Positions 3 to 62,899 of a DNA stretch of 64,000 nucleotides are shown piece after piece. The notes under the pieces are model-generated. The model did no database searches. It was given only the letters and a program-made list of their open reading frames with translations, and had not been told where the DNA came from. The stretch covers positions 3,968,001 to 4,032,000 of the forward strand of contig NZ_JAQNDL010000001.1 of the NCBI RefSeq assembly GCF_028368995.1, read 5' to 3'. The DNA is from Nannocystis bainbridge. GTDB lineage: Bacteria > Myxococcota_A > Polyangia > Nannocystales > Nannocystaceae. Numbering within the stretch: position 1 is the stretch's first letter; each line of letters begins with the position of its first letter. Position numbers and translations under genes: made by a program.

Positions 3-1193
3 AACCTGTCCCTTGGTGCATGTCTCTCGATCCTCGCTGCCTGTCCCGCGAGCGGCGGTGAGACCACCGCCTCGACCGGCGAGCCGGCCACCACGACGAC
101 CACGTCCACCACCACCGCGGCGACCCTTGACGCCTCGACTGGCACCACCGCGCCGACCACCGACGCGCCGACTGGCACCACCACCGGCGCGCCTGTCGAC
201 CGCGAGCCGTTCAGCATTCAGGTGCTCGACAATGCCTGGATCACCGGCACCGACGGTTGGACCACCCAGCACCAGGACATCGCCTTCGACCTCGGCGCAG
301 CCCCCTTTTCAAAGGTCACGCTGATCGTCGATCTCGGCACCGACTGTTATCCGTGGGAAAATTGGCAGGCCAGCCCGCCGCCGCCGGGGCAGTCGTGGCC
401 GGCCTCGTGCGACGCGTTCGACCGGACCATGGGCTTCATCAGCGACCCGGGCGGCGACCCGGGCGACCCGCCCGGCTTCGAGCTGCTGCGCTCGATCACC
501 CCGTTTGGCGGCCCCGCTCACCTCGAGGCCGACATCACCGACTACGCCAACGCCCACCCTGGCGAGCACGTGCTGCGCTCGTACATCAACACCTGGCCTG
601 ACGGCGCCGGCAAGGTCAGCGGCTCGGCCGGCGGCTGGCACCTCAGCGTGCGCATCGAGGGCCAGCCCGGCCCGGCCCCGCGCGAGGTGCTCGCGGCCGT
701 CTCGCTGTTCGCCGGCGACGTCGGGGTCGACGGCGCGACCACCACGGTGCCGTTCAGCCTGCCCGCGGGCTTCAAGAAGGCCGAGCTCGTCTACACCGTC
801 AGCGGCCACGGCGGCGCGACCGACAACAGCGGCGGCTGCATCGGCCCCGCCGAGGAGTTCTGCAAGCGCAAGCACCACATCAGCCTCGACGGCGCCGTCG
901 TCACCTCGTTCGAGGCCTGGCGCACCGACTGCGGCGAGCTGTGCACGATCACCGACAATGCGCTCGGCGTCGGCCCGGCCAAGTTCTGCGCCGAGAACCC
1001 GTGCGGCGCGATCGCCTCGGTCCAGGCCGCGCGCGCCAACTGGTGCCCCGGCGACCTCGTCGCCCCGCTGCGCGGCCCCGTCACCTCGGCCCTCGGCGCC
1101 GGCCCGGACCACGAGTTCCAGTTCGCCATCGACAAGGTCAAGGAGGGCGGCAGCTGGACGGTGTCGGCGGCGATCTACGCTTACGGGCCGTGA
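3..1193 (+). CDS. PNGase F-related (peptide-N-glycosidase C-terminal domain) lipoprotein, 5' end outside window
   Basis: Frame is open from base 3 (..LSILAAC lipobox, then Thr-rich linker). It carries GHGG..AEEFC and RANWCPG motifs typical of PNGase F C-terminal-like domains. Confidence 0.7.
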   Translation, partial: NLSLGACLSILAACPASGGETTASTGEPATTTTTSTTTAATLDASTGTTAPTTDAPTGTTTGAPVDREPFSIQVLDNAWITGTDGWTTQHQDIAFDLGAAPFSKVTLIVDLGTDCYPWENWQASPPPPGQSWPASCDAFDRTMGFISDPGGDPGDPPGFELLRSITPFGGPAHLEADITDYANAHPGEHVLRSYINTWPDGAGKVSGSAGGWHLSVRIEGQPGPAPREVLAAVSLFAGDVGVDGATTTVPFSLPAGFKKAELVYTVSGHGGATDNSGGCIGPAEEFCKRKHHISLDGAVVTSFEAWRTDCGELCTITDNALGVGPAKFCAENPCGAIASVQAARANWCPGDLVAPLRGPVTSALGAGPDHEFQFAIDKVKEGGSWTVSAAIYAYGP

Positions 1194-1268
1194 GCGCGCG
1201 AGCGATGGGGCCGTGGGCGCGGCGCTCCGACGCGTGGCGAGTCAATCAAGTCTCGTGCGTGCCCAGCA

Positions 1269-1352
1269 TGTCCCGAAGAACATGCCTCATTCGACATGTC
1301 TCATCGAACATTATCGATCGGGCATATCCTTGAGAGCATGTCCGCTCGGACA
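1269..1352. repeat. Tandem array of six 14-bp TG..CA palindromic units
   Basis: TGTCCCGAAGAACA TGCCTCATTCGACA TGTCTCATCGAACA TTATCGATCGGGCA TATCCTTGAGAGCA TGTCCGCTCGGACA. CAT recurs at 1267, 1281, 1295, 1309, 1323, 1337 and 1351. Confidence 0.9.
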
Positions 1353-2252
1353 TCACGTGAACGGCGGCTCTGCCCGGCGGCGCAGGCGGGCCGCCTCGTC
1401 GCCGCGGCCGAGCGCCTCGAGGCCCTCGGCGAGGATCCGCGCGAACGGGCCGCGGAGGTCGCCGCGGCGGACGGGCAGGCGGTCGTACCAGCGCAGCGCC
1501 TCGGCCATGCCGCCCTCTGCCTGCGCCGGCGCGGCGCAAGCGGCACGTAGGGACAGCTTGGCCAGGCGGGCCACGCACAGCACCAGGTGGCTGGCGCTGT
1601 CGCCCCCGAGGGTCGCGTCGTCGAAGTTGTCGCCCTGCAGCAGCGGGAACACGCGGCGGACGAACGCGACGTAGCGGCCGAGGTTGCGCCCGGCGTCGGC
1701 CAGACAGGCGACGTGGGCCGCGAACTCCTCGTCGAGCAGGACCTCGAGGCAGGGTCGCTCGGGCCGGCGGCGCTTCCACACCTCGACGGCGAGCAGGCCG
1801 AGCAGGTCCTGGTCGGCCTCGGCGAGGGTCTGCGTCATGTACACGCGCAACGCCAGCTGCCACGCCGACGCGAACTCGGGCGCCTCGTCGAGGATCGCCA
1901 GGGTCCGCGGCAGGCGCAGCCCGCTGAGCCGATCGAGCCAGGCCAGCAGCGCGCGGTCGGGCAGCGCCGCGACCTCGCCGATGCGCAGGAAGCCGGGGCA
2001 GCGCAGCGCCCACACGCCGTCGTAGCGGTACTCCTCCTCGAGCTGCGCCGCGTAGGCGGGGATCTCCTGCTCGGCGGCGACGCTGGCGATGCTGCGCTCG
2101 CGCTCGTCGAATTCGGCGGCGCCGAACCACCGCCGCATGAGCGCCGTCTCGACCGCGACCGCGGCGCGAGCCCGGGCACGGATCCGGCTGCGCTCCACCG
2201 CTCGCACGGGTCGCGGCCGCTCCCGCGGGAGGCGCTGCGGAAACCTGGCCAT
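1353..2252 (-). CDS. hypothetical protein
   Basis: ORF with globular, helical-looking composition. Start is uncertain (ATG 2252 or 2138). Confidence 0.6.
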   Translation of the reverse strand: MARFPQRLPRERPRPVRAVERSRIRARARAAVAVETALMRRWFGAAEFDERERSIASVAAEQEIPAYAAQLEEEYRYDGVWALRCPGFLRIGEVAALPDRALLAWLDRLSGLRLPRTLAILDEAPEFASAWQLALRVYMTQTLAEADQDLLGLLAVEVWKRRRPERPCLEVLLDEEFAAHVACLADAGRNLGRYVAFVRRVFPLLQGDNFDDATLGGDSASHLVLCVARLAKLSLRAACAAPAQAEGGMAEALRWYDRLPVRRGDLRGPFARILAEGLEALGRGDEAARLRRRAEPPFT

Positions 2253-2512
2253 GACCGGTCTATGGGGCGGCCTCCGCGGCGCGGCAACGCGCACCGACAA
2301 GCGACGTGCGCAGTCCGACGTTCACGGGCCAAAGCGCGCCGAAAAGCGCCGCAGAAGGCCGCTGCGAACGTCGGTCGGCCCGCACGCCGCGACACCTCTC
2401 GTCGCTGTCACGCAGGCCACGGCCGTCGCGCTCGCAGGCGGTGCGGACGCCTGTCCATTCGCGCCGGGGCCTTGAGCGCCGGGGCCGCTTCGCGCAAGCT
2501 CGCAAGCAGATC

Positions 2513-5068
2513 ATGACGCCGTTCCACGCAGTGACCGCGGCCTTGATCGTCGTGGGCTCCGGGGTCCTGGCGCTGGGCGCGAAGCGGACGCTGGCGCTCC
2601 TTCGACTGCGTCAGGTCACCCCTCATGCCGGACCGTGGCGGGTCCTGCTCTCCCTGATCGTCGTCTGCATCGCCGCCTACATCGCCACCGCGGTCGTCGT
2701 CCTGCTCGGCCTGCAAGAGGCGGTGGTGGCGCTGACCGGCGTCATCTTCCTGGGCGGTGGGGTGTTCGTATACCTCGCCGCGGACGCCAGCTTCCGCACC
2801 ATGCAGGCGCTGGTGAAGTCGAGCATGACCCAGCGCCAGGTCGGCGACATGCTCGAGGCCCTCAGCCACGCCGTGCTGCTGGTCGACGACCGCGGCGTCG
2901 TCCGCACCGTCAACCGCAAGCTGTGCGAGATCACCGGCCTGCCCGCCAGCGCCCTGGTCGGCAAGTCGATCATGCAGGCGGTCGGGCTCGAGAACCCGTT
3001 CGCGACCTCGGCGGTCAAGAGCAGCATCGACATGCCGCACACCCACGAGCACGAGCTGCGCCGCCGCGACGGCGCGGTGGTGCCGGTGGCGGTGGCGATC
3101 GTGCCGGCGCACCGCGGGTTCGTGTGCGTGCTGACCGACATCCGCGAGGACCGCCTGCGCCGACGTCAGCTCGACGACGCGGTCCGGATCGCCGAGGAGA
3201 TCTTGCGCGCCCGCAACGAATTCATGGCGCTGGTGGCGGTCGAGCTGCGCGACCCGCTGGGCCAGCTGTCGCGGGCCTCTCGCGCCCTCGTCGACGCCCC
3301 GCCCGAGGCCGACGTCGCCGCCATGGCCCGCAAGATCGGCGTCGCCGGCGAACAGCTCGAGCGCGTCGCCCAGAGCCTGCTCGAGGTCGGTCGCCTCGGC
3401 GGCAGCGCCGAGGGGGCGCGGGTGTTCCAGCCGGCCGCGCTGCTGCGCGACGCCGCCGAGGCGCTGTCGGTCCAGGCCGGGCGCGCCGGGGTGATCGTGC
3501 GCCACTACGTCGAGCAGGGCGTGCCTTCGACCTTCTACGGGCGCGAGGCGCAGATCCGGCAGATCCTGGGCCTGCTCGGGCTCAACGCGATCGCGCGGGC
3601 CCCGGGCGGCGAGATCCGGATCGCCGTCGAACCTGTCCCCGGGGACAAATCATCGCACCAGCTGCTGTTCTCGGTCCGCGACACCGGCTATCCGCTGACC
3701 GATACCACCGCCGACGTCGAGTTCGACCCGCTGACCAGCGGCGCGCGCAGCCAGGGCGGCCGGCTCGACCTGGCGATCTGTCGCCTGCTGGTGCTCTCGC
3801 TCGGCGGGCGCATGTCGGCCGGCAACACCACCGGCAACACCGCGACCGTGTTCTTCACCGTGCTGGGCGGCGTCGCCCCCGGGTCGCAGCAGGCGGCGCT
3901 GGTCAACGCGCTCGGCGAGACCCAGGCCGTCGCGTCGCTGAGCGGCGGCGGGTGGAAGAACTCGTTCGAGGCCTCGGCGCGGCTGGCCCGGCTCGCCGTG
4001 CCCGACGCCGGCCCCGAGCCCGAGCGGCGCACCGGCTCGGTCCTGGTCGTCGACGACAGCCCGACCAGCCGCGAGCTGCTGGCTCACCAGCTGCGGCAGG
4101 CCGGCAACACCGTCGAGGTCGCGGGCACCGCCAGCGAGGCGCTCGACCTGGTGTGGCAGCAGGAGTTCGACGTCGTCCTGCTCGACGTCCTCCTGCCCGA
4201 CAGCGACGGCATCGCCGTGCTCGAGGAGCTGCGAGAAAAAGGCGCGCTCGAGCGGCTCAGCGTCTTGATGATCTCCGCGGTCGAGGAGACCTCGAGCGTG
4301 GCCGCCTGCATCGAGCGCGGGGCCGAGGACTTCTTGCCCAAGCCGGTCAGCCCGGCGCTCTTGCGGGCCCGCCTCGGCGCCTGCCTCGAGAAGAAGTTCC
4401 TGCGCGACAAGGCCCGCCACCACCTCATCCAGCTGGCGGCCGAGGGCCGGCGCGCCAACGACCTGCTGCGCGTGCTGCTGCCCGACCCGATCGCCGACGA
4501 GCTGCAGTCGACCGGCACGATCGCCCCGCGCCGGCTCGACAACGTCGCCGTGGTGTTCGCCGACATCGTCGGCTTCACCGCCTACTGCGACCGCCACAGC
4601 CCCGAAGAGGTGCTCATCAGCCTGCAGGACCTGTTCACCCGCTTCGAGCAGCTCGCGCTCGAGTTCGGCGTGCAGAAGATCAAGACGATCGGCGACTCCT
4701 TCATGGGCGCCGCCGGCCTGTTCAGCGCCGAGGACGAGCGCCCGGCCCTGCGCTGCGTCCAGTTCGGCCGCGCGATCCTGGCGGCCGGCGCCGACCTCGC
4801 GACCCACTGGAACCTGCGCATCGGCATCCACGTCGGCCCGGTCGTCGGCGGCGTGGTCGGCACGCGTCAGTACATCTTCGACATCTGGGGCGACACGGTG
4901 AACACCGCCCAGCGCATCGAACAAAACGCCCGCGTCGGTCAGGTCTGCATCAGCGCCGCGGCGCGGCGGCAGGTCGAACCCGACTACGAGACCGAGAGCA
5001 TCGGCCTCAGCGAGATCAAGGGCAAGGGCGAGGCCGAGATCTTCATCGTCGTCGGGGGCCCGAATTGA
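2513..5068 (+). CDS. Membrane PAS / degenerate His-kinase / REC / class III adenylate cyclase
   Basis: Three TM segments, PAS, HisKA-like AVELRDPL without His, degenerate HATPase, REC (VVDDS, LLDVLLPD, PKP), cyclase motifs FADIVGFT, KIKTIGD and FDIWGDTVNTAQR. Confidence 0.9.
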   Translation: MTPFHAVTAALIVVGSGVLALGAKRTLALLRLRQVTPHAGPWRVLLSLIVVCIAAYIATAVVVLLGLQEAVVALTGVIFLGGGVFVYLAADASFRTMQALVKSSMTQRQVGDMLEALSHAVLLVDDRGVVRTVNRKLCEITGLPASALVGKSIMQAVGLENPFATSAVKSSIDMPHTHEHELRRRDGAVVPVAVAIVPAHRGFVCVLTDIREDRLRRRQLDDAVRIAEEILRARNEFMALVAVELRDPLGQLSRASRALVDAPPEADVAAMARKIGVAGEQLERVAQSLLEVGRLGGSAEGARVFQPAALLRDAAEALSVQAGRAGVIVRHYVEQGVPSTFYGREAQIRQILGLLGLNAIARAPGGEIRIAVEPVPGDKSSHQLLFSVRDTGYPLTDTTADVEFDPLTSGARSQGGRLDLAICRLLVLSLGGRMSAGNTTGNTATVFFTVLGGVAPGSQQAALVNALGETQAVASLSGGGWKNSFEASARLARLAVPDAGPEPERRTGSVLVVDDSPTSRELLAHQLRQAGNTVEVAGTASEALDLVWQQEFDVVLLDVLLPDSDGIAVLEELREKGALERLSVLMISAVEETSSVAACIERGAEDFLPKPVSPALLRARLGACLEKKFLRDKARHHLIQLAAEGRRANDLLRVLLPDPIADELQSTGTIAPRRLDNVAVVFADIVGFTAYCDRHSPEEVLISLQDLFTRFEQLALEFGVQKIKTIGDSFMGAAGLFSAEDERPALRCVQFGRAILAAGADLATHWNLRIGIHVGPVVGGVVGTRQYIFDIWGDTVNTAQRIEQNARVGQVCISAAARRQVEPDYETESIGLSEIKGKGEAEIFIVVGGPN

Positions 5069-7879: not shown

Positions 7880-8153
7880 CGCGCGGTGCTGGCATTCCCG
7901 GCGAACCGTCGAAGTACCCTCATTCACGCGGCGTCCGCCCCGCGCCGGCGGGCCGGGCGCCATGGCTGCGATTGCCGTGAACGCCGTCCGCTCTGGCGTC
8001 ATTCCGAGAATCTACATACATGCCCTAAAGGACATACGGCGAGGCGCCCGCCGCACCGCGCAATCGCTCCACAATCATTCGTGACGGCGCACACACACGA
8101 CAATGGCCCTCGCGCCTATCGCCGCTGTCATGGCGTGAGCGATCATCGCGGCG

Positions 8154-9374: not shown

Positions 9375-9438
9375 CCGGCGCCTCGCATGTCCTTCGGGAC
9401 ATGTGACCCGGCGCGGGCGAGCCGGCCGCTCGCCCGCC

Positions 9439-10594: not shown

Positions 10595-10664
10595 TGTCCC
10601 GATGAACATGCCCCTTCGAACATGCTCTTTATGGCATGCGCGAAAGAACATGCCCGTCAGGACA
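10595..10664. repeat. Tandem array of five 14-bp TG..CA units
   Basis: TGTCCCGATGAACA TGCCCCTTCGAACA TGCTCTTTATGGCA TGCGCGAAAGAACA TGCCCGTCAGGACA, followed by half unit TGTCTC and the stop at 10671. Confidence 0.9.
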
Positions 10665-11344: not shown

Positions 11345-13189
11345 ATGACGGCGGTCCCTCGCGACGCGTGGCCCATGGTCTCTCTCGCCCTCGCGGCGCT
11401 CCTGTCCGGCAGGGCGAGCGCCGCGACCGAGCCGGGCAGCCTGCAGAACCCGCTCGAGAAGGCGGCCGACTGCCGCAAGTGCCACGCCTTCGCCAACCCG
11501 CCGCAGCACGTCGAGCTGCCCAACGTCTCGCCGATCGCGTGGGCCGGCGGGATGATGGCCAACGCCGCCCGCGACCCGGTGTTCTGGGCCGGCGTGGCGA
11601 TCGCCGCCCAGGACATGCCCGGCGAGACCAATAGCTGCATCCGCTGCCACTCGCCGCGGGCCTTCGTGGCTGGCCGCGACGACGCCACGGCGATCGACGA
11701 CCTCGATCCCGACGACCTCTCCGGCGTGGACTGCGACCTCTGTCACCGCATGATCGACGACGGCCTCACCCCGTTCGGCGACGCGCACTACACCATCGAC
11801 GACGTCGTCGGCGACGCCGGCGACGTGCCCAAGCAGGGCCCGTGGTCCTACGACGGCGGCGACAAGCCGATGCACAGCTGGGTCGTCGGCGACCTGCTGG
11901 GCCGCTCCGAGCACTGCGGCACCTGTCACGACGTCACCACCGGGCGCGACCGCCTCGACGACCGCGGCCAGCCGATCGGCGCCAAGTTCAACGAGCAGCG
12001 CACCTACAGCGAGTGGCTCGCCAGCGCCTACGCGAGCGAGGGCCTCGAGTTCAAGTCGTGCCAGGACTGCCACATGCCGGCGGTCGACGACGTGGCCGGC
12101 TGCGCCGAGTTCAACGGCCAGGGCACCTTCCACCCGACCGGCGGCCGCCGCCACGACCTCGCGGGGGCGAACCGCCGCATGGTCGAGATCTTGAAAACCC
12201 TCTACGGCAGCGAGGGCAGCGGCGACATCGAGGACGCGTACTTCGAGGTCGCGCTCGCCGGCATCGACCTGTCGCTGGCCGGGGCCGCCACGCTCGAGGT
12301 CACCGCGCCGGCGGAGGTCGACCTCGCCGCGGGCATCGACGCGTGGACGGTCAAGGTCACCAACAACACCGGCCACAAGCTGCCGACCGGCTACTCCGAG
12401 GGTCGCGTCATGTGGCTCGAGGTCACCGCGAGCTACTTCGACGAGGTCGTCTACGCCTCGGGCCGGTGGCTCGCCGGCGAGGGCCTCGAGGGTGACCCTC
12501 AGCAGCGCACCTACGAGGCGATCGCCGTCCACCAGCAGACCGGCGTCACCAACCATTTGCTGCTCAACGACTACTGGCAGGTCGACAGCAGGATCCCCCC
12601 CAAAGGCCTCCAGGCGGGCATCGAGACCGACCCCGTCGGCGACCGCTACACCCCGCTGCCCGACGAGACCTGGCCGCACTGGGACGAGGTCACCTACTCG
12701 TTCGGCCCGGGCCAGGCGATCGACACCACCCCCGGCGTGGCCGACGTGCTCGACCTCCGCGTCCGCCTCCTCTACGTCATCAACACCCCGGCCTACCTCG
12801 ATTTCCTGGCCGACGAGAACCACACCAACAGCGCCGGCGCCGACGCGCGGGCCCTGTTCCCGGCCGAACCTGATCCATTGGTCCTGGCCGAATGGACAGC
12901 CTCGGTGCCGGTCGTCGGCCTGGTCGAGGAGGGCGCGACCGACACCGGCGCGACCGACAGCGACACCACCAGCGACACCACCGGCCCGGCGCCGACCACC
13001 GGCGCGACGACGGAGCCGACGTCGTCGAGCTCGGGCGCGACGCCCACCAGCACGAGCGGCGGAGCGTCCGACAGCGCGACGACCAGCGGGCAGACCGGCG
13101 GCGAAGACGGCTGCGGCTGCCGCCAGAGCAGCCCGGCCGGCAGCCTCGCGCTGCTGCTGCTCGCGCTCGTCCGCCGCCGCCGCCGCTGA
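11345..13189 (+). CDS. Pentaheme cytochrome c with MYXO-CTERM-type tail
   Basis: Signal peptide, five CXXCH motifs (CRKCH, CIRCH, CDLCH, CGTCH, CQDCH), NTGHKLPTG, Thr/Ser linker, then GCGC-hydrophobic-RRRRR. Confidence 0.85.
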   Translation: MTAVPRDAWPMVSLALAALLSGRASAATEPGSLQNPLEKAADCRKCHAFANPPQHVELPNVSPIAWAGGMMANAARDPVFWAGVAIAAQDMPGETNSCIRCHSPRAFVAGRDDATAIDDLDPDDLSGVDCDLCHRMIDDGLTPFGDAHYTIDDVVGDAGDVPKQGPWSYDGGDKPMHSWVVGDLLGRSEHCGTCHDVTTGRDRLDDRGQPIGAKFNEQRTYSEWLASAYASEGLEFKSCQDCHMPAVDDVAGCAEFNGQGTFHPTGGRRHDLAGANRRMVEILKTLYGSEGSGDIEDAYFEVALAGIDLSLAGAATLEVTAPAEVDLAAGIDAWTVKVTNNTGHKLPTGYSEGRVMWLEVTASYFDEVVYASGRWLAGEGLEGDPQQRTYEAIAVHQQTGVTNHLLLNDYWQVDSRIPPKGLQAGIETDPVGDRYTPLPDETWPHWDEVTYSFGPGQAIDTTPGVADVLDLRVRLLYVINTPAYLDFLADENHTNSAGADARALFPAEPDPLVLAEWTASVPVVGLVEEGATDTGATDSDTTSDTTGPAPTTGATTEPTSSSSGATPTSTSGGASDSATTSGQTGGEDGCGCRQSSPAGSLALLLLALVRRRRR

Positions 13190-13905
13190 TTGCCCTGCTG
13201 CGCCTCGCCAGCGCCGCGGCCGCTGACGGTCCCCCTGCCAGCGCCGCGGCGATGGCCCGAAGCCACCGCCCTCGCATTGCGGCCACCGCCTGCTGAACCT
13301 GCCGGAGCGTCACGGAGATCTCGCAAGCGCAATTCCGCCCACCCCGCCCCTCACCGCGCCTCACGCGCACGAAGAATGAACAGCGTCTCGCCCGCCTCGT
13401 GGCAGCTTTCCCGTTAAGCCGCCATCATTTCCGGCCATTTATTTCCCCACTTACTCTTCGCCGACTCGCCTGCCAAACGCCCCCTGCTCGCCTCCTCGCA
13501 CCGCCCCCGGCCGTGGAGACGCCCCGGCCACCGTTCCCGCGCGGCCTTCACCGACCGCGAGCGCTGCCGTACTGTCACATTCGCCAGGGCACCCGCTTCA
13601 CCTGACCTTTTGGACATGTGCATCGACCCGCGTTTCGATGAGCGCCCGTTCATCCGCGTCGCCCTCGCGCGGCCCTGGAACCGGTGAACCGCACTTAACT
13701 CGACCGCTCGCGGCCTCGCTCGTACTTTGATTGCGTCGAGTCCAGTCGGGGCGCTGCGCAGCTCCTCCGCCTGTCCTCGATCGCCGCCGCTCCGGTGGCG
13801 AGAGCGCCGATGCGCCTCCCGTTCGCCGCCGCTGCCCGGCTGCGCCGGCGAGCCCGCCGCGCCGTGCGAGCGTCACGGCGCCGTCCTTCCCCTGCAAGGA
13901 GCCGA

Positions 13906-16237: not shown

Positions 16238-16307
16238 TAAACCTTCGAACATGTTCCCGAGAACATGCTCCTATGCGCATGCTCATTTAGACATGTTCTT
16301 TCGCGCA
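16238..16307. repeat. Tandem array of 4-5 14-bp TG..CA units between convergent genes
   Basis: (TAAACCTTCGAACA) TGTTCCCGAGAACA TGCTCCTATGCGCA TGCTCATTTAGACA TGTTCTTTCGCGCA, then TG and the stop at 16310. Confidence 0.85.
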
Positions 16308-16309
16308 TG

Positions 16310-17827
16310 TCACGGGGCGCGCTTGCGCCGGCCCGGGTCGAACCACACCGCCACCTCGATCCCGAGGTTGAGCTCGACCCCGCCGATGGCCGCCAGCGCC
16401 GGCTCCCCCGGGCGCGCCAGCAGCGGCTTGCGCGGCCCGCCTGCGCCTGGCTCCCCCGAGGCCCACAGCTCCGCGCGCGCCCCGGCGCGCACCGCCACGG
16501 CCGGGAGACGCAGCCAGAAGCCCGGCGACAGCCGCAGCCCGCCGCCGAGCAGCGGCCGCGACCCGCCGCGGATCACCGTCGCCTCGCCGCCTGCCAGGCC
16601 CCACCACTCGACCCCGACCAGCCCGACGATCGGCAGCTCGAACGCCCGCACCCGCACGCCGAAGCCCGCCCCCGCCGCCATCCGCACGCGCACCAGCGTG
16701 TGGCGATCGACCGGGGCCACCGTCGCCCGCACCTCGACCGCCGCGATCGCCCCGCGACGCCAGCGCAGGTCGAGCCCGAGCCCGAACATCGCGCCGCGCA
16801 CCCCCGCGAGCGGCCGGTCGAGCCCGAACGAGGCCCCGTCGTAGCGGACCAGGCCGAGCTCGAGCGCGGGCACCCGCGGCTTCGCAGGCGCGGGCAACCG
16901 CGGACAAAGCTGCACCTCGGGACATGTCCTATTAGAAATGTCCTTCGGGACAGGCGACTGCGGCGGTGGTGCGGCGGCGATCGCCGGCGGCACCGGCACG
17001 TCGCGCTGATCGGGGGCGACCGAGTCGTCCTCGATGGCGGCGATCAGCAGCGCCAGCGCGGCCGCCACCGGGCGCGCGGGCGGCTCGTCCTCGGTGTCGA
17101 CGACGCGGAAATAGGCCCGCCCGTCAGCGAGGATCAGCGCCACCTGCACCTGCGTCGGCGACGTCCGCCGCAGGTCGACGAACGCGCGCAGGCCGTCGCC
17201 CACGGGCAGCGCCTCGCCCTGCTGCGCCAGCGCCAGCGACGGCAAGCGCACCCGCAGCGCCCGCGCGACGTCGGCGAACACCAGCCCCTCGACGTGCACC
17301 AGCGCCCCGGCGATCGTCAGCGCCCGCACGCCGACCGGGCCTTCGCTCGCGCCCATCTGCACTGCTGCGGGAGGTCCCGTGCTCGCATCCCTCGGCGCTG
17401 CGTCAGGACTCGAGCTCGCGTCGCTTGGCGGCGAAGGCACGCTCGCTCCCGACATCGCTGGAGGCGACGTGGCCGTATGGCGCTTCGCCCCCCGATCGTC
17501 CCTCGGTGGCGAAGGCTCGCTCGCTCCCGGCGCCGCAGAAGGTGACGCGACTGCGTCACGCTTCGCCCCCTGTTCGTCCCTCGGTGGCGGAGCCACGCTC
17601 GCAGGCGACAGGGCCGCATCACGCTTCGCTCCCTGATCGTCCCTCGGTGACGAACGCTCGCTCGCTCCCGGCGCCGCGTCACGCTTCGCCGCCTGATCGT
17701 CCCTCGGTGGCGAAGGCTCGCTCGCTCCCGGCGCCGCGGACGACAGGGCCGCATCACGCTTCGCCGCCCCGCCAGGCGCGGCGGTCGGGCTCGTCAGCGC
17801 GAGCGCGAGCAGAGGAGCGAAGAGCAC
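16310..17827 (-). CDS. Exported protein with N-terminal repeats and C-terminal beta-barrel-like region
   Basis: Signal peptide, about five AKRDAA..ASEPSPPRDDQ repeats and amphipathic beta strands ending EVAVWF. Confidence 0.65.
   Translation of the reverse strand: MLFAPLLALALTSPTAAPGGAAKRDAALSSAAPGASEPSPPRDDQAAKRDAAPGASERSSPRDDQGAKRDAALSPASVAPPPRDEQGAKRDAVASPSAAPGASEPSPPRDDRGAKRHTATSPPAMSGASVPSPPSDASSSPDAAPRDASTGPPAAVQMGASEGPVGVRALTIAGALVHVEGLVFADVARALRVRLPSLALAQQGEALPVGDGLRAFVDLRRTSPTQVQVALILADGRAYFRVVDTEDEPPARPVAAALALLIAAIEDDSVAPDQRDVPVPPAIAAAPPPQSPVPKDISNRTCPEVQLCPRLPAPAKPRVPALELGLVRYDGASFGLDRPLAGVRGAMFGLGLDLRWRRGAIAAVEVRATVAPVDRHTLVRVRMAAGAGFGVRVRAFELPIVGLVGVEWWGLAGGEATVIRGGSRPLLGGGLRLSPGFWLRLPAVAVRAGARAELWASGEPGAGGPRKPLLARPGEPALAAIGGVELNLGIEVAVWFDPGRRKRAP
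16911..16952. repeat. Three phased 14-bp units (42 bp) inside a CDS linker
   Basis: TGCACCTCGGGACA TGTCCTATTAGAAA TGTCCTTCGGGACA. Confidence 0.8.
17440..17770. repeat. Imperfect 60-78 bp intragenic tandem repeats
   Basis: Recurring tcgtccctcggtggcgaaggctcgctcgctcccggcgccgc and tcacgcttcgc segments. Confidence 0.8.
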
Positions 17828-19481: not shown

Positions 19482-20675
19482 TCACGGCGGCTGACAATCG
19501 GGCGGGCCGATGAACACGTCGTCCACGCTCCAGCCCGCGATCGGCGGCAGCCCCGGCTCCGGGTGGTGATGACAAAAACGAACCATCAGCCCGGGGTTGC
19601 GAAAGGGCGTGATGTCGATCGCGTGCGGCGTCCACTCGGGATCCTCGAACGGCTCGTTCTTGCTCTCGAACACCGCCAACCATTCCTTGCCGGTCCACAC
19701 ATCGACGCGCGCGCTCGCTGGCAGCCGCGGCGGCAGCGGCACGAGCGAGATCTGACTCCAGTAGTGCAGCAGGAGCGGCTCCGGCCCCTCCTGCAGCTCG
19801 ATCGGCGGGCTGGTGAGGCAGGCGTCCATCGGCAACGGCTCGTCCGGCAAGCACCCGCCGATCGCGGCGCCCGCGAGCATGTTGTCGTCGCCGGGGCTGT
19901 GATCCTCGGCCGGATCCTCGAGCCCGTTGAAGGCGCACGCGGAGGGCTTCGCCGGGCCGATCATCCACGGCGGATCGGTCAGCCACGTCCCGGGATCGGT
20001 GAAATCGGCGAACAGGATCGGCAGCCCCGGCTTGCCGAAGCACTGACCCCCGGCGCAAAAATCATCGAAGGTGCAGCCGAGCCCGTCGTCGCACGGCGCG
20101 CCGTCCTCGAGCAGCTCGATCGCACAGTTGCCGGAGGCCGGGTTGCAGAAGCCCTGCTGGCACGCGCCGCCGTGCCCGCTGCAATCGCGCGGCACCCCGG
20201 TGCATGCGCCGGCGATGCATACGTTGGCCTCGGTGCAGAGGTCGCCGTCGTCGCACTTGATGCCCTCGAGCTCGACGTAAGAGCACTGCCCGCCGTCGCA
20301 CTGCGGCTGGCGACACGGCTCGTCCGGACAATCCTCGGCGACCCGGCACTGCAGCGGCGGTCGGCACAGCCCGGCCTCGCACAGCCCGCCGGCGCAGTCC
20401 CACGGCCCGGAGCACTGCTGCCCCGGCCCGCACGGCGGACACACCGGCCCGCCGCAGTCGAGGTCGGTCTCGGCCCCGTTGATGATTCCGTCGAAGCACG
20501 GCTCGACCGGCGCCGGCGGCGGCTCGGAGAGCGCCGTATCTGTCCCCGAGGACATGGTCTCCGAGACGGCCTCGGTGGCGCTGGCGCTGTCGACGAACTC
20601 GTAAGTCACCGGTCGACAGCCCGCGAGCGCCCATCCTGCGAGGATCACCCGCAGCGCACAGAGCCTCATCCTCAT
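19482..20675 (-). CDS. Cys-rich lipoprotein with C-terminal jelly-roll-like domain
   Basis: LAGC lipobox, DGIINGAETDLDCGG and CDDGDLCT repeats, C-terminal GWSVDDVFI. ATGA overlap with the upstream gene. Confidence 0.8.
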   Translation of the reverse strand: MRMRLCALRVILAGWALAGCRPVTYEFVDSASATEAVSETMSSGTDTALSEPPPAPVEPCFDGIINGAETDLDCGGPVCPPCGPGQQCSGPWDCAGGLCEAGLCRPPLQCRVAEDCPDEPCRQPQCDGGQCSYVELEGIKCDDGDLCTEANVCIAGACTGVPRDCSGHGGACQQGFCNPASGNCAIELLEDGAPCDDGLGCTFDDFCAGGQCFGKPGLPILFADFTDPGTWLTDPPWMIGPAKPSACAFNGLEDPAEDHSPGDDNMLAGAAIGGCLPDEPLPMDACLTSPPIELQEGPEPLLLHYWSQISLVPLPPRLPASARVDVWTGKEWLAVFESKNEPFEDPEWTPHAIDITPFRNPGLMVRFCHHHPEPGLPPIAGWSVDDVFIGPPDCQPP

Positions 20676-49490: not shown

Positions 49491-49883
49491 CACTCGCACT
49501 CCTTCTCGTCTGCTGCGAGGGCGGCGCGGCGCCCTCGGGAATGTCACGAGTCTGGGCACGACCCGAATCACGCGCCGCCGCGCTCGGGTCTCGCGGATCA
49601 GGCTCAGGCCGCCGCGGACGCGTCGTGCTCCGGCTCCGGCGGCCCCGCGGCCCCGATTGTGCTCACCGTCACAGTATAGACATTCGCCGCGGGCGGCCCG
49701 CAAGAGCCCGTCACTCTATCCAATCATCGCGTCCCCCGCCTGGCCCGCACGAGCGCTGCGACCTGCACGGGCCGCTGCTGTGCGCCCCTACCCGCCGCCG
49801 TCCGTCGACAGCCGGGCTCTTGCGGGCGAGCGGCAGTCCCATGATTGTGCCGTCCGCCCGTCACGACCTGTCCCTGCGGACAG

Positions 49884-53921: not shown

Positions 53922-54078
53922 GCGGCGCATGATGCCACACGCCGCGACGCCGCGTCGCATGAGCCCGCCGCGCTCGCTGCACCGCGCTTGTCTTCTCGCG
54001 GCGGCGGGCTAGAACTCAGGCGCCGGCGTCACCTGCCCTTCCGGACAGCCTGCGCGGCGACCCCTGCGAGGACGACCG

Positions 54079-54718: not shown

Positions 54719-56238
<1,520 letters not shown>

Positions 56239-56591: not shown

Positions 56592-56633
56592 TGTCTCTCG
56601 CGACATGTCCTCCATGACATGTCGTGATGGACA
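56592..56633. repeat. Three perfect TGTC-N6-GACA units filling a convergent gap
   Basis: TGTCTCTCGCGACA TGTCCTCCATGACA TGTCGTGATGGACA. Confidence 0.9.
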
Positions 56634-59763: not shown

Positions 59764-59828
59764 TTCGAGCTCCTGCGGCGAGAGAGAGGCCGTCAGGATC
59801 GCACGAAATCACCGGCGCGGCGATCGCC

Positions 59829-60710: not shown

Positions 60711-60760
60711 GGTGGCGCCCACGCTATCGCAGCCGCCCTGGCCCAGCAAGGCGCGCCCGC

Positions 60761-60906
60761 GCGCGCCCGTCCGCGCGCCTCGCAAGCACCTGTCTCTCGG
60801 GACATCTCATCGCCACGCCGATCCTCCGCCGGGGGACAGGCGCGCGCGGGCGCGCCCGTCCGCCCCTCGAATCAACCTGTCTCTCGGGACATCTCATTGC
60901 CACGCC
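60761..60906. repeat. Imperfect ~58-bp direct repeat, each copy containing TGTCTCTCGGGACA
   Basis: Copies at 60761-60819 and 60850-60906. Confidence 0.8.
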
Positions 60907-60945
60907 CATCCCCCTTCCGCGCCCGCCCTCGCGTACGATGCCCGG

Positions 60946-62622
60946 GTGCGCCGCCGCAGCTTCCTCGCCGGGACCGCCGCGCTCGCGTGCGGTCGGCCGC
61001 GCAGGGTCGAGCCTGGCTTCGGCGAGACGCGCGACACCGTCGCCGCCCTGCTCGACGCCTGGCGCGAGAAGATGCCCGTCGTCGGCCTCAGCATCGCCCT
61101 CGTCGATCGCGGCGAGCTCGCCTGGGCCACCGGCTTCGGCATGGCCGACCGCGAGGCGCGGCAGCCTGCCACCGCCGACACCGTCTACGCGATCGGCTCG
61201 CTCACCAAGATCTACACCGCCCTCGCGGCCGTGCGCGCCGCGCAGGCCGGCCGGCTCGACCTCGAGGCCCCGCTGCAGCGCCACCTCCCGCAGTTGCGCG
61301 CGCTCGGCAGCGACGCCATCCGCTTGCGTCAGCTCCTCTGTCACCGCTCCGGCCTCGTCTCCGACTGGCACCGCGGCAGCCTCGGCGCGCGCCCGCCCGA
61401 CTGGCGACGCGTCGCCGACGAGGTCGCCGAGGAGCCCCTGCTCGCCGCGCCCGACAGCTGGTACGCCTACTCCAACGTCGGCTACACCCTCATGGGACAT
61501 GTCCTCGACGACATGTCCGATAAACCATATCAAGAGCACGTCCTCGACGTCGCCCGCCTCGCGCTCGGCGGCTCCGGCCTGGGCTTCGACCCGCCCCCCG
61601 GCATGGCCGCCAGCTACTGCGCCGGCCAGCGCGAGCACGAGCCGCGCCTGCGCCTGCAGCCCGCCGCCGGCATGTTCGGCAGCGTCCTCGATCTCGTCCC
61701 GCTGCTGCGCTGGCTGCTCGCCGGTGAGGGCGCCGCCGCGGCCATGCTCACCCCGCAGTCGGCCGGCCCGCTCGATTTCGACGAGCGCTGGGGCCTCGGC
61801 CTCGCCCTGCAGCACGTCGGCCTCGCCCACGCCGGCCGCGTCGCCTGGCACACCGGCCGCACCTTCGGCCACCGCGCCGCCCTGTTCGCCCTGCCCGATC
61901 GCGGCCTCGGCGTCGCCGTGCTCGCCAACTTCCGCGAGGCCGGCGGCGTCGAGGACCTCGCCGCCTTCGCCCTCCAGACCGCCCTGCTCGAGCGCGACGG
62001 CCTCGACCTCCCGCCCAGCGCCGGCGACGCCGAAGCCCGCCCGCGCGCCCCCTTCGACCCCGCCGCGCTGCAGGCCCACGTCGGCCGCTACGCCCACGAG
62101 TTCGACGTCGTCCGCCTCGCCGTCGAGCGCGGCGGCCTGGTCTCGCGCGCCGAGATCGGCAAGACCGCGCTGATCCCCGCGGCGGGCGGCGGCTTCCACA
62201 GCGCCGACAACCCCGACGCTCACGTCACCATCGCCGAGCGCGCCGGCCACCACGTCGTCACCAGCACCGTGCGCGGCGTCGAGACCCGGATCGGTGTGCG
62301 CTGTCCCTTCGAACATGTCCCCGAGGACTGGCTCCGCCGCGTCGGCCGCTACACCGTCGACGCCGGCCCCGACGAGGTCGTCGCCTTCAAGGCCGCCCAC
62401 CTCACCGCCGTCGAGGGCGGCCTCGAGCTCCGCCTCGAGCTGCCGCAAGCGTTCGCCACCAGCTCGACCCTGGCCCGCTACGCGCTCATCGTCACCGGCC
62501 CACACGAGGCCCGGACCTTCGGTGTCGGCCGCGGCAAGGGCCAGCGCGTCGCGGCCTTCGACGGCCCCGAGGGCCCCGAGCTGGCATGGGCCGGCTACCG
62601 CCTGCTCCGCAGCGACGCCTGA
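60946..62622 (+). CDS. Serine hydrolase (beta-lactamase class C-like), Tat lipoprotein
   Basis: RRRSFL..ALAC, SxxK (SLTK), YSN and HTG. Confidence 0.88.
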   Translation: MRRRSFLAGTAALACGRPRRVEPGFGETRDTVAALLDAWREKMPVVGLSIALVDRGELAWATGFGMADREARQPATADTVYAIGSLTKIYTALAAVRAAQAGRLDLEAPLQRHLPQLRALGSDAIRLRQLLCHRSGLVSDWHRGSLGARPPDWRRVADEVAEEPLLAAPDSWYAYSNVGYTLMGHVLDDMSDKPYQEHVLDVARLALGGSGLGFDPPPGMAASYCAGQREHEPRLRLQPAAGMFGSVLDLVPLLRWLLAGEGAAAAMLTPQSAGPLDFDERWGLGLALQHVGLAHAGRVAWHTGRTFGHRAALFALPDRGLGVAVLANFREAGGVEDLAAFALQTALLERDGLDLPPSAGDAEARPRAPFDPAALQAHVGRYAHEFDVVRLAVERGGLVSRAEIGKTALIPAAGGGFHSADNPDAHVTIAERAGHHVVTSTVRGVETRIGVRCPFEHVPEDWLRRVGRYTVDAGPDEVVAFKAAHLTAVEGGLELRLELPQAFATSSTLARYALIVTGPHEARTFGVGRGKGQRVAAFDGPEGPELAWAGYRLLRSDA

Positions 62623-62853
62623 GGCCGGGCGGCAGAGTCAGTGTCTCGGAATCACATGTCCCAAGGGACAGCCAATCTCGAAGCGCAAGCGCGTCGCTCG
62701 ACAGGTCGGCGCCGCTCCTCGGTCCAGCGCTGGGCCACGCGCGGCGGTTCCGCAGCCCGGCTACCGCCTGCTCCGTAGCGACGCCTGACGCCGGGCGGCA
62801 GCGCCCGACGCCTCCGAATCACATGTCCCGAGTGACAGCCAACCTCGAAGCGC
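62591..62853. repeat. ~96-bp imperfect direct repeat of the gene 3' end plus 14-bp motif
   Basis: 62591-62686 versus 62757-62853 (ccggctaccgcctgctccg..gaatcacatgtccc..gacagccaa..tcgaagcgc). Confidence 0.85.
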
Positions 62854-62899
62854 GAGAACCTCTCTCGCGCCAGCAATCAACCTGTCTCAAGAAACAGCC

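Follow-up and report, generated by a model that had tools for sequence, protein, structure and literature searches.

The genome of Nannocystis bainbridge, a soil bacterium with a large genome, carries a genuine family of palindromic units, present in very many copies, that is confined to one small clade and whose placement shows a strong link to the 3' ends of protein-coding genes. The core of the unit is TGTCC-N4-GGACA, and the full site is a 20-bp palindrome, RCM-TGTCCYNNRGGACA-KGY. No published description of the family was found, in agreement with the initial annotation, which knew of no matching element; the family seems to represent a genome-wide signal that has not been described before and is limited to one small myxobacterial group.

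A palindromic family repeated throughout the genome

In the window, the whole 64,000-nt stretch of DNA analyzed here, TGTCCCNNGGGACA occurs exactly four times (at 3634, 24955, 31792 and 62657), and 100 dinucleotide shuffles of the window contained no exact copy. Across the 11.05-Mb genome, 343 copies match exactly, 1,691 differ at one position and 3,561 at two. By comparison, each of 18 control patterns yielded 0–3 exact copies; they covered direct, everted and complement-only forms, five permutations of the palindrome, and spacers set to 0, 1, 3, 4, 5 or 6, the last indicating that the spacer is strictly 2. A refined 20-bp scoring matrix, trained genome-wide and applied with a unit threshold of at least 12 bits, identified 12,827 units in 7,673 loci, whereas the reversed matrix gave 94 units; raising the threshold to 20 bits left 4,817 and 1, respectively. 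The units cover 1.6% of the genome. Loci, about one per 1.4 kb, are present on all five contigs, the longest gap between them being at most 29 kb, and their density is roughly even (79–243 per full 250-kb bin). The dispersed palindrome that had been reported from the window as TGTCCC-NN-GGGACA, and interpreted as a genome-wide signal, is real and was understated, while nothing supports the suggested tie to ori/ter or segregation.

Units occur singly or in head-to-tail arrays of up to nine with an exact 14-bp phase, which the initial annotation missed. Genome-wide, 5,154 pairs of neighbors stand exactly 14 bp apart, whereas distances of 1–13 or 15 bp never occur; arrays of 1 to 9 units number 5095, 1378, 495, 248, 280, 149, 20, 7 and 1, respectively. 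In a comparison of flanks, the consensus extended no further than 3 nt to each side of the unit, indicating that no flanks belong to the element.

Between species, the arms retain their sequence and the four central bases vary; the earlier remark that the ends are conserved and the center is not is correct. In the convergent gap 56584–56635, all six species have exactly three units, with arms kept and centers diverged. At third-codon positions of units in ORFs, arms differ at 7–10% of sites, against a background of 16%, and centers at 11–39%. Only Nannocystis and two sister genera carry the family (23 motif-bearing genomes), and the versions in the sister genera are weaker and more A/T-rich.

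Sites in the window

In the window, the 20-bp matrix identified 56 units in 35 loci, or about one locus per 1.8 kb, compared with the one per 2 kb estimated before. All 30 14-mers listed originally are present as written, and 29 of them score at least 12 bits (13.1–27.2); the site at 18031 was dropped at 9.1 bits. The matrix added 21 further units, which extend the listed sites into tandem arrays, and six loci that had been overlooked (12885, 23469, 34839, 35466, 36230 and 54916; marked 'new' below). The units are listed without strand; G001, G007 and G010 are related genomes.

7..20: single unit, 21.2 bits; kept at 17–18 bits in G010 and G001
1269..1352: 6-unit array in exact 14-bp phase, 12.1–23.4 bits; convergent gap between ORF 222–1193(+) and ORF 1353–2252(−), the array ending at the latter's stop codon; orthologous gap with 4 units in G010 and 4 in G001
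3634..3647: exact unit in histidine-kinase/receiver/cyclase ORF (2441–5068); identical 20-mer in G010, G001 and G007
8021..8034: single unit, co-directional gap, 24.1 bits; same-place unit in G010, G001 and G007, each with a different center
9388..9401: single unit, convergent gap, 27.2 bits, the window's best; starts 13 nt past the stop of ORF 8154–9374
10595..10664: 5-unit array, 16.1–25.4 bits; 4 units at the orthologous place in G010
12885..12898: weak single unit, new, 12.1 bits (at threshold); identical in three relatives
13603..13616: single unit, long non-coding gap, 24.6 bits; 26–27 bits in G010, G001 and G007
16252..16307: 4-unit array, 14.1–22.5 bits; convergent gap 16219–16309, downstream of response-regulator gene; the region between the same anchors is much longer in G010, G001 and G007 and holds 2, 4 and 8 units, respectively
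16911..16952: 3-unit array within called ORF 16310–17362, 16.9–23.5 bits; coding status doubtful because of 1-nt indels in G001 and G007
20541..20554: single unit, 18.3 bits; present in G007, with 3-nt indels alongside in G010 and G001
21078..21119: 3-unit array, 13.1–15.9 bits; positions kept in three relatives
21370..21383: single unit, 19.4 bits; 16–20 bits with differing center in three relatives
23469..23482: single unit, new, 19.0 bits
24955..24968: exact unit, some 95 nt upstream of MarR-family gene 24406–24861(−); 21–23 bits in three relatives
25364..25377: single unit, non-coding gap, 21.5 bits
26117..26130: single unit in MFS transporter ORF, 22.1 bits, one frame staying open on both sides; 18–19 bits in three relatives
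31792..31805: exact unit in DEAD-box/DUF3516 helicase ORF; 21 bits in three relatives
34839..34852: single unit, new, 14.9 bits; identical in four relatives
35466..35479: single unit in esterase ORF, new, 14.8 bits; identical in four relatives
36230..36243: single unit, new, 16.4 bits
39906..39919: single unit, 23.9 bits, at the junction where glpX (stop 39899) adjoins the next ORF (start 39905); 18–24 bits in all five relatives
41083..41110: unit pair in ORF 40857–41939, 14.6 and 19.2 bits; present in all five relatives, with four different centers
42593..42606: single unit in OmpA-family ORF, 17.2 bits; 14–20 bits in five relatives
49869..49882: single unit, 21.3 bits, 1 nt off the stop of acetyltransferase gene 49884–50417(−); gap holds a unit in one of five relatives (G007)
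54034..54047: single unit, 16.3 bits, 31 nt upstream of GFA-family gene 54079–54546; four of five relatives identical including the center, G007 differing by two arm changes
54916..54929: single unit in aldehyde dehydrogenase ORF, new, 20.5 bits
56592..56633: 3-unit array, 17.2–23.6 bits; convergent gap between DUF779 gene (stop 56583) and MarR-family gene (stop 56636)
60791..60804: single unit, divergent gap, copy 1 of an 87-bp tandem duplication, 23.0 bits; aligned place holds a unit in four of five relatives
60878..60891: single unit, copy 2 of the same duplication, 23.0 bits
61500..61527: unit pair in beta-lactamase-family ORF 60946–62622, 25.3 and 21.6 bits
62302..62329: unit pair in the same ORF, 19.1 and 15.8 bits, kept in five relatives; first unit has CTTCG here and CGAAG in all five
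62657..62670: exact unit, 34 nt past the stop at 62622
62824..62837: single unit, same convergent gap as 62657, 16.7 bits
62883..62896: single unit, 3 nt off the stop of ORF 62900–63979(−), 17.9 bits

Placement at the ends of protein-coding genes

Copies do occur in promoter gaps, 3' gaps and coding regions, as described initially, but the placement is uneven. Considering that genes were called with a crude third-position G+C caller, the fractions given here are approximate. A unit is present in 811 of 1,300 convergent gaps (62%), rising to 66–77% for gaps of 60–400 bp, where units make up 16–40% of the bases. By comparison, among 356 divergent gaps below 150 bp only 9 contain one (2–4% of short divergent gaps). 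Divergent gaps hold only 805 of 12,819 units and the neighboring genes are unrelated, so that this is not an ordinary regulon, as suspected initially. Unit positions peak 2 nt past the stop codon, and in co-directional gaps of 300–800 bp, 77 loci start 0–10 nt past the stop, compared with about 20 per 10 nt beyond. In 2,166 of 6,212 genes (35%), a unit follows the stop within 120 nt, and in 756 one precedes the start within the same distance. The downstream value for tRNA genes is 7 of 102 (7%), and no unit lies within 300 nt of either rRNA-operon copy, indicating that the unit is not the organism's general terminator. By eye, the downstream flanks of three tRNA genes appear to contain an ordinary hairpin, in one case followed by a T-rich run. 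Matches to a hairpin-plus-T-run terminator in the first 20 kb of the window are at chance level (4 versus 4.2 in shuffles).

Our tentative reading, which we consider quite possible, is that the family is a REP/HIP1/DUS-like element that would be recognized by its sequence and would serve mainly as an end-of-gene signal, through a putative partner and mechanism; REP, HIP1 and DUS, named as analogues at the outset, are indeed the closest. The arms would be read by a trans-acting factor, the simplest candidate being a dimeric protein on duplex DNA with neighbors stacking on the phased arrays, and the same palindrome could also form hairpins in the transcript. The main role may be to mark the end of protein-coding transcription units, either as a two-way barrier or as a 3'-end protector, which would explain the abutment on stop codons, the occupancy of about two thirds of convergent gaps and the avoidance of promoters, and that same pressure on the sequence would give rise to the copies in ORFs through point substitution. 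This reading has to contend with the fact that only 35% of protein-coding genes have a unit after the stop. Moreover, an end-of-gene role leaves approximately 1,900 conserved ORF copies unexplained, and the 14-bp phase sets successive dimers on different helix faces.

Base pairing and the transcript

Alternatively, the units could act purely at the RNA level, as REP-like 3'-UTR hairpins that stop transcription or shield mRNA from 3' exonucleases, the DNA palindrome being merely a template without any DNA-binding factor. The stop-proximal peak, the convergent-gap occupancy and the far better service of protein-coding than of tRNA genes agree with this possibility. Arm variants on the sense strand are more often G-U-compatible than C-A (1,281 versus 1,072), and more so within 60 nt of the stop (612 versus 471), with background skews of 0.96 for G/C and 1.06 for T/A. 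Folded as RNA, the array at 56592..56633 reaches −33.2 kcal/mol (z −7.2), and the unit at 9388..9401 with its flanks forms a 10-bp stem of −16 kcal/mol (z −4.5). RNAalifold predicts one long hairpin for six orthologous arrays, in which both partners have changed in 6 of the 18 pairs, a result that rests on six related sequences.

On the other hand, a single unit stripped of its flanks forms a weak fold (roughly −7 to −8 kcal/mol, z near −1), and no covariation beyond the consensus was found, either within units or between units of an array. Half-sites degenerate independently (pair 4/9 is T-A in 43 cases versus about 43 expected), and in arrays of 2–6 a unit matches its own reverse complement at 4.0–4.8 of 10 positions, compared with 4.71 for that of a random unit. 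Pair 2/11 is Watson-Crick in just 47% of units and G-T in 9%, the remainder being unpaired. Sense-strand loops are nearly symmetric (153 TTCG versus 171 CGAA), and stable tetraloops are not favored in the sense direction. The missing covariation and the near-symmetry of the loops argue against the hairpin as the selected feature, and a terminator would be harmful within ORFs, where about 1,900 copies are kept. We regard a purely RNA-level element as unlikely.

Copies within ORFs

At 1,915 of 7,671 loci the same frame is open on both sides; the in-ORF loci include 1,520 singlets and 319 doublets. Because 14 or 28 bp cannot insert in frame, these copies cannot be insertions and originated by point substitution. 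In 6,212 robustly called genes we found 4,381 units, compared with 386–408 in four synonymous-codon shuffles and 42–56 in two codon-order shuffles, a comparison that had been proposed as a possible refutation and fails to refute the signal. At 20 bits or more, the values were 1,043, 10–20 and 0, respectively, so that the enrichment over synonymous shuffles ranges from 11-fold to about 70-fold. The unit at 54916..54929 is written by the codons GCA CAT GGC GCG AAG GAC AGG, and no indel is involved; five of the eight genus genomes compared have it, and 22 genomes of other genera lack it (at most 2.2 bits). The pair at 61500..61527 is kept in five relatives with A/T-ending codons (e.g. GGA, CAT, CTT, GAT), in a genome whose called genes have 85–98% G+C at third codon positions. 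ORF copies lie a median of 905 bp from the nearest non-coding locus, compared with 990 bp for random coding positions; by this distance, they do not fill gaps between other loci.

The family could also result from molecular drive of the DUS/USS or HIP1 type, in which a biased process (preferential uptake and recombination of motif-bearing DNA, or biased repair or conversion) pushes near-matches everywhere towards the motif and selection then clears copies from promoters and constrained codons. Such a drive, which we judge fairly improbable, would fit the even density of about one locus per 1.4 kb over all contigs, the substitution-made copies in all three frames with their unusual codons, and the maintenance of the motif across the genus with weaker, more A/T-rich forms in two sister genera. 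The lack of gap-filling spacing is likewise expected in the absence of a positional function. ComEC and DprA genes are present, but say little because most control genomes match too. In contrast, the stop-codon enrichment and the conserved 3-unit arrays look positional. To our knowledge, known uptake sequences are asymmetric and lack phased tandem arrays, which counts against a drive of this kind.

A site of chromosome architecture, bound by a nucleoid-associated protein or targeted by topoisomerase/gyrase, as proposed for REP/BIME, would have no transcript-end role; the 3' bias would reflect sites of least harm or positive supercoils between convergent genes. The sequence-level constraint without pairing, the strand symmetry, the conserved ORF copies, the even distribution in the genome and the highest density between convergent genes are in line with this possibility, and phased arrays suit cooperative binding. 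However, ORF copies do not even out the spacing, tolerance alone does not predict the peak 0–10 nt past the stop in long gaps, and the sense-strand G-U bias is not predicted either, making a purely architectural site improbable.

Mobility and chance

A selfish REP- or MITE-like mobile repeat, propagated by a transposase, could account for the extragenic bias, for the differences in copy number between species in the same gap (6 versus 4 and 4; 4 versus 2, 4 and 8) and for the lineage-specific array expansion. This explanation is very unlikely and already largely refuted by the substitution-made ORF copies, which cannot be insertions, by the consensus that stops 3 nt from the unit, and by the absence of a Y1/RAYT transposase from the three motif-bearing genera (all 23 genomes), in contrast to its presence in 20 of 50 genomes from other genera of the order. 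Furthermore, the genome has almost no DNA repeats of at least 400 bp in three or more copies, and 0 of 12 inspected repeat copies end in the motif. Chance, base composition or a protein-coding motif, for which no point was found, has a negligible likelihood and is already refuted, as ORF copies are spread over all three frames (374, 362 and 122) without a common peptide and the dinucleotide shuffles, control patterns, reversed matrix and codon shuffles all speak against it.

A palindrome repeated thousands of times in strict phase

The initial annotation listed 30 unit starts of a dispersed 14-bp palindrome in the window (C1:3968001-4032000, G+C 69–74%), and all 30 of its 14-mers were found exactly as listed. 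The exact form, TGTCCCNNGGGACA, occurs 4 times in the window compared to 0 across 100 dinucleotide shuffles; in the whole assembly of Nannocystis bainbridge (11.05 Mb in five contigs) there are 343 exact copies, 1,691 at one mismatch and 3,561 at two. As controls, we rearranged the half-sites (direct, everted or complement-only), permuted the palindrome in five ways at constant composition and varied the spacer to 0, 1, 3, 4, 5 and 6 nt. Each of the 18 control patterns yielded 0–3 exact copies genome-wide, and because the other spacers remain at control level, the 2-nt spacing of the palindrome is strict.

A logo calculated from the 2,034 copies that match exactly or differ at one position is symmetric (RCM-TGTCC...GGACA-KGY) and extends the site by three bases on either side, to RCM-TGTCCC-NN-GGGACA-KGY. 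Conservation within the 14-mer is strongest at the initial TG and the final CA and next strongest at CC and GG; there is almost no constraint on the four central bases, which are relatively A/T-rich, in agreement with the conserved ends and variable centre described earlier. Scanning the genome with an iterated, symmetrised 20-bp matrix, as had been proposed, gave 12,827 units scoring at least 12 bits compared to 94 for the same matrix read backwards, and 4,817 compared to 1 at 20 bits or more. In the window, the matrix finds 56 units in 35 loci. The sites listed initially score 13–27 bits in 29 of 30 cases, the exception being 18031 with 9.1 bits; arrays of 6, 5, 4, 3, 3 and 3 units had been entered only as their first unit.

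The earliest hint of tandem arrays came from GGGACATGTCCC, the junction palindrome between units, which has 102 copies in the genome. Neighbouring units are exactly 14 bp apart in 5,154 cases and never 1–13 or 15 bp apart, with further peaks at 28 and 42 bp. The genome contains 7,673 loci in total, and those of one to nine units number 5095, 1378, 495, 248, 280, 149, 20, 7 and 1, respectively. Outside the arrays, the consensus in the genome-wide flanks ends after 3 nt on either side, indicating that no larger element surrounds them; the lack of consensus beyond this point also speaks against a MITE, with its terminal inverted repeats, 50–500 bp of internal sequence and target-site duplication. 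A CRISPR array was rejected as well, given that the units abut without spacers and that the window scores below the gathering cutoff of every Rfam family. Higher-order palindromy of arrays was considered, as one orthologous array, in the congener G001, is a perfect 42-bp palindrome, but the genome-wide effect is small: the first unit matches the reverse complement of the third at 4.95 of 10 positions, and other pairs match at about 4.3.

Three CATG motifs at a 14-bp period are found 1,670 times in N. bainbridge, 1,005–1,162 times in five near-complete close congeners and 2–62 times in more distant or fragmented ones, so that array growth is lineage-specific. A second route of unit multiplication is seen in tandem repeats of ~85–87 bp, present at 60749–60911 as two copies with one palindromic unit each. 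Similar unit-bearing repeats lie between the anchors flanking 16219–16309, where the congener G007 has four and G001 three looser ones.

Placement relative to genes

Genes were called by third-position G+C (7,737 genes, 81% of the genome), and the context fractions are approximate. Out of 12,819 units, 5,022 lie within called genes; the gaps contain the rest, with 3,235 between convergent, 3,757 between co-directional and 805 between divergent genes. Convergent gaps amount to only 0.35 Mb of DNA and divergent gaps to 0.60 Mb. A unit is present in 811 of 1,300 convergent gaps (62%), and for gap lengths of 60–400 bp the occupancy is 66–77%, with units making up 16–40% of the bases. Among co-directional gaps, 1,248 of 3,614 carry a unit, and only 9 of 356 divergent gaps shorter than 150 bp do so.

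Units most often follow the stop codon at a distance of 2 nt, at which the final stop-codon base doubles as the R of the flank. At co-directional gap lengths of 300–800 bp, 77 loci begin 0–10 nt past the stop compared to ~20 per 10 nt beyond, and loci are scarce less than 100 nt from the next start. For 6,212 robust genes, a unit is found within 120 nt past the stop in 2,166 and within 120 nt before the start in 756. Units lie within 120 nt downstream of only 7 of 102 tRNA genes and within 300 nt of neither of the two rRNA operon copies; by eye, the downstream flanks of three tRNA genes seemingly contain an ordinary hairpin, in one case followed by a T-rich run. The palindrome was rejected as an intrinsic (Rho-independent) terminator, as its flanks have no T-run, and only one of the four terminator-like matches in window positions 1–20,000 overlaps a unit. 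These four hairpin-plus-T-run matches compare to 4.2 expected by chance.

The earlier view that an ordinary regulon is unlikely is supported by the small share of units in divergent gaps and by the unrelated genes next to units in the window, which encode signalling proteins, transporters, a helicase, GlpX (glpX), an aldehyde dehydrogenase, MarR regulators and a beta-lactamase-family protein. On the same two grounds, we rejected a transcription-factor regulon, defined by promoter sites of functionally related genes.

Copies inside open reading frames

Loci were assigned to ORFs when an identical high-G+C3 frame was present on both sides and open through the locus. By this strict test, 1,915 of 7,671 loci lie inside ORFs and 75% outside, the unit density outside being ~15 times that inside by rough arithmetic. 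The ORF loci include 1,520 singlets, 319 doublets and 52 triplets, and 24 of 705 arrays of at least four units pass the test. Because an insertion of 14 or 28 bp breaks the frame, the ORF copies were made by substitution. All three frames are used (374, 362 and 122 copies), and the copies share no common peptide.

The number of units in genes, 4,381, falls to 386–408 upon within-gene shuffling of synonymous codons, so that the initial observation withstands the codon-preserving control proposed with it; at 20 bits or more, 1,043 units compare to 10–20 after the same shuffling. Shuffling of codon order leaves 42–56 matches, with none at 20 bits or more. At one site, in the aldehyde dehydrogenase ORF, the unit (20.5 bits) reads GCA CAT GGC GCG AAG GAC AGG in five of the eight genus genomes compared. 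The congener G003 encodes an almost identical peptide as GCC CAC GGC GCC AAG GAC AAG, which scores 0.4 bits, and 22 genomes of other genera score at most 2.2 bits; there are no indels at the site in any compared genome. Gap-filling spacing by ORF copies was also considered and was not seen.

Conservation among congeners

The comparison between species was restricted to the 64-kb window, with which five congeners are syntenic at a gene identity of 82–94%. Units in ORFs stay in place and are spelled with A/T-ending codons, as at 61500, where GGA CAT GTC CT... is found in all six species; the called genes of N. bainbridge have a third-position G+C of 85–98%. In the three best relatives, which are not independent of one another and provide 28–81 sites per class, 7–10% of third-codon positions in the arms differ compared to 16% in the background, and the four central bases differ at 11–39% of sites over all codon positions. 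Intergenic DNA is mostly unalignable between these species, and units nonetheless persist: the convergent gap 56584–56635 contains exactly three units in six of six species, with the arms kept and the centres diverged, and the unit at 8021 is found in all three anchorable relatives. Copy numbers vary at orthologous places, with 6 units in N. bainbridge compared to 4 and 4 in relatives, 5 compared to 4, 4 compared to 2, 4 and 8, and 1 compared to 0, 0, 1, 0 and 0.

Given how far these species have diverged neutrally, lack of constraint is a better reading of the fast centre than hypermutability. Loop inversion was rejected as the source of centre variation, since by our own criterion an inversion is apparent in only 1 of 69 ortholog comparisons with a change (controls, 12 of 43,771), in addition to an off-centre case at 62302. 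At this latter site (62302–62315, in the beta-lactamase-family ORF), N. bainbridge has CTTCG and all five relatives the reverse complement CGAAG, with an altered peptide, a change that resembles inversion of the palindrome centre. A further unit, at 54034–54047, is identical including its centre in four of five relatives. It lies 31 nt ahead of a GFA-family gene, which is followed by genes for aldehyde dehydrogenase and a DUF779 protein, and the unit may double as an ordinary operator.

Taxonomic distribution

The palindrome is real, under sequence-level constraint and clade-specific. A search for ACATGTCCCNNGGGACATGT in a single genome from each of 185,579 species matched 58 stretches, 43 of them in records titled Nannocystis or Nannocystaceae and the remaining 15 being single matches in unrelated taxa. 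The exact core has 15–309 copies in each of ten congeners, 15–19 in two genomes of two other genera and 0–3 in the other 18 genomes searched. The pattern CATGTC-N6-GACATG occurs 13–944 times in 11 of 11 Nannocystis genomes, 28–54 times in five of five genomes of one sister genus (g2) and 11–170 times in seven of seven of another (g4), compared to 0–3 in the other 50 genomes from 14 genera (control patterns, 0–2). Among the matches listed for the two sister genera, many units read TGTCT and have more A/T-rich centres, as judged by reading rather than counting. Viral contigs contain no two-unit match and eight single matches to the 20-mer (raw count).

As far as our searches reach, the palindrome is undescribed, in line with the initial annotation: full-text searches on Nannocystis palindromes or repeats, on myxobacterial REP and on the half-sites gave no published description. 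In PMC5217627, the half-sites occur only within a different, Bifidobacterium motif. PMC12306157 and PMC3733652 do not mention myxobacteria, and supplementary files might list further genomes.

A candidate end-of-gene element

The reading we tentatively favour is that of an end-of-gene element that serves protein-coding units and is recognised by a factor. It is possible, if rather doubtful, that the palindrome acts in cis within a genome-wide system that is specific to this clade and as yet undescribed, in which a sequence-specific factor would bind the phased 14-bp units and so determine, for both directions, where protein-coding transcription units end. This would amount to a sequence-defined, factor-dependent end-of-gene code, conserved between species at orthologous places and extending even into ORFs, where its copies arise by substitution.

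The architecture has counterparts among operators. MetJ met-boxes, omega-protein heptads and ParR iterons are operator arrays bound cooperatively by small dimers, with few sites per replicon, at promoters or centromeres. The palindrome likewise forms spacerless, contiguous short repeats in exact phase, with the 14-bp unit composed of two inverted 7-bp heptads, a likeness that serves as a lead only; unlike these arrays, it has 7,700 loci, most of them following genes, and is linked to no protein of this kind. FNR and PrfA boxes are 14-bp dimer sites of 5-N4-5 or 6-N2-6 geometry, and the PadR motif is ATGT-N8-ACAT; all are promoter sites of regulons. The geometry is the same and the 20-bp consensus contains ATGT-N8-ACAT, again a lead only, whereas the number, placement and arrays of the palindrome are of another order.

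The alternative of a pure RNA hairpin, with the palindrome selected for pairing, is unlikely. In near-consensus copies, the half-sites decay independently (T-A at pair 4/9, 43 seen and ~43 expected; pair 5/8, 171 and ~229, by our own arithmetic), and over all units the excesses are only small, e.g. for C-G at pair 2/11 (493 compared to 310). In arrays of 2–6 units, the match to a unit's own reverse complement is 4.0–4.8 of 10 positions compared to 4.71 for that of a random unit; loops have no sense-strand preference (TTCG 153, CGAA 171), and single units without complementary flanks fold weakly. Selection at the RNA level is nonetheless suggested by the arm variants on the sense strand, which in co-directional gaps are G-U-compatible in 1,281 cases compared to 1,072 for C-A, and within 60 nt of the stop in 612 compared to 471 (background skews, G/C 0.96 and T/A 1.06). 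The flank pair −1/+14 has a small pairing excess (2,892 seen, 2,572 expected), with slight covariation in non-coding singlets (2,000 and 1,737); folding energies of arrays are −28 to −34 kcal/mol, and RNAalifold folds six orthologous arrays into one long hairpin. On balance, the evidence points to arms that are recognised by sequence, with a weaker hairpin component.

A product of drive, of the DUS or HIP kind, appears improbable. DUS of Neisseria and USS of Pasteurellaceae occur about once per 1–1.5 kb, are evenly spread and enriched after genes, and have substitution-made ORF copies and clade 'dialects'; their asymmetric core of 9–12 nt is found in both orientations, paired inverted copies form hairpins, and uptake is receptor-specific. 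The palindrome is similar in its density of about one per kb, its even spread, its enrichment after genes and its substitution-made ORF copies. In contrast to the asymmetric DUS core, the unit itself is palindromic around a strict 2-nt centre, and it forms phased tandem arrays. The presence of ComEC and DprA genes in N. bainbridge is uninformative, as they are also found in 10–11 of 14 control genomes. HIP1 of cyanobacteria (GCGATCGC) is a palindrome over-represented by orders of magnitude in and out of ORFs and kept at orthologous places. Our palindrome shares the over-representation in both compartments and the orthologous retention, but differs in sequence, is longer (14–20 bp compared to 8), is ~15 times denser outside ORFs than inside (our own arithmetic), forms tandem arrays and has no lineage-specific D12 methyltransferase. 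Of 73 genomes from the order, 69 have a gene of the D12 class, which therefore does not track the motif; being near-universal, it was rejected as a lineage marker.

We regard an architectural or topoisomerase site as distinctly improbable. Gyrase binding is one of the roles proposed for REPs, beside mRNA stability and termination (PMC3733652). Loci of the palindrome are found on all contigs, at 598–862 per Mb, with a longest locus-free stretch of 29 kb. The mapping of density against ori/ter that was put forward with the idea of a chromosome-level signal reveals no visible gradient in this five-contig assembly.

REP/BIME elements of enterobacteria and pseudomonads are short palindromes that number in the thousands. 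Most of them are extragenic and lie at 3' ends; they often cluster, are clade-specific and are associated with RAYT transposases. The RAYT gene is typically REP-flanked, and the stem of the imperfect REP palindrome is kept by compensatory changes. The high copy number, extragenic 3'-end bias (75% of loci outside ORFs, 62% of convergent gaps occupied), clustering and clade specificity of our palindrome are alike. Its unit, however, is shorter (14–20 bp), its clusters run head-to-tail in exact 14-bp phase, compensatory changes are absent, with pairing no better than the consensus predicts, and a quarter of its loci lie in ORFs, created by substitution. It also lacks the conserved GTAG or CGTC tetranucleotide that marks one end of REPs (PMC3733652). 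None of the 23 carrier genomes has a RAYT gene: Y1/RAYT (PF01797) is absent from N. bainbridge and from 11 of 11 Nannocystis, 5 of 5 g2 and 7 of 7 g4 genomes, compared to its presence in 20 of 50 genomes of other genera, with most genomes 60–95% complete. Y1-transposase genes are thus confined to genera without the palindrome, a distribution to which no statistical test was applied since the genomes are related. Membership of the REP/RAYT family was rejected for want of RAYT, tag and compensation. A selfish mobile repeat is highly improbable, and a larger mobile element or insertion-sequence partner was rejected, as repeats of at least 400 bp in three or more copies are almost absent and 0 of 12 inspected repeat copies end in the motif. 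The initial suggestion of an analogue of HIP1, DUS or REP holds in that the palindrome behaves like a blend of all three. It fails the REP/RAYT membership tests and differs from DUS by palindromy and phased arrays, and from HIP1 by length, extragenic bias and arrays.

Gene ends in very G+C-rich bacteria are poorly understood, and here one short sequence marks about one-third of gene ends and two-thirds of convergent pairs in genomes of 11–13 Mb. It combines traits that are usually separate in three classes, namely REP-like placement, HIP1- or DUS-like ORF copies and operator-like phased arrays, with no REP transposase. With its sharp definition, the palindrome lends itself as bait in the search for a new factor that binds DNA or RNA. 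It also provides a test case for substitution-driven spread of iterated palindromes and a strong sequence signature of Nannocystis DNA in metagenomes. As a part for engineering myxobacteria, which are major natural-product producers, it may be of practical use as a compact two-way insulator.

Other features of the window and genome

The N. bainbridge genome is repeat-poor, nearly all repeats of at least 400 bp being two-copy. Several contig ends are repeated elsewhere (C1:4515657-4536529, C2:3021504-3033749, C2:0-3612 and C5:707289-720615), which points to overlap between contig ends in this assembly. Further features of the window are as follows.

18343–18981: tandem repeats with periods of 102–105 and 210 bp, ~6 copies, 77–94% matches, inside ORF 18139–19428 (no Pfam match)
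28581–30376: H-NOX (haem-NO-binding) gene adjoining an HNOBA histidine kinase gene, 93% identical to relatives
50461–51462: protein with an Mrr-type restriction endonuclease domain
59813–60448: 330-bp tandem duplication, 1.9 copies, 86% matches, inside ORF 59829–60749 (no Pfam match)

The repeat unit at 18343–18981 seemingly has several Cys codons on the coding strand and gives paralogous alignments in relatives, which suggests that ORF 18139–19428 encodes a predicted cysteine-rich repeat protein; such proteins occur in myxobacteria. The H-NOX and HNOBA histidine kinase genes likely encode an NO-sensing pair.
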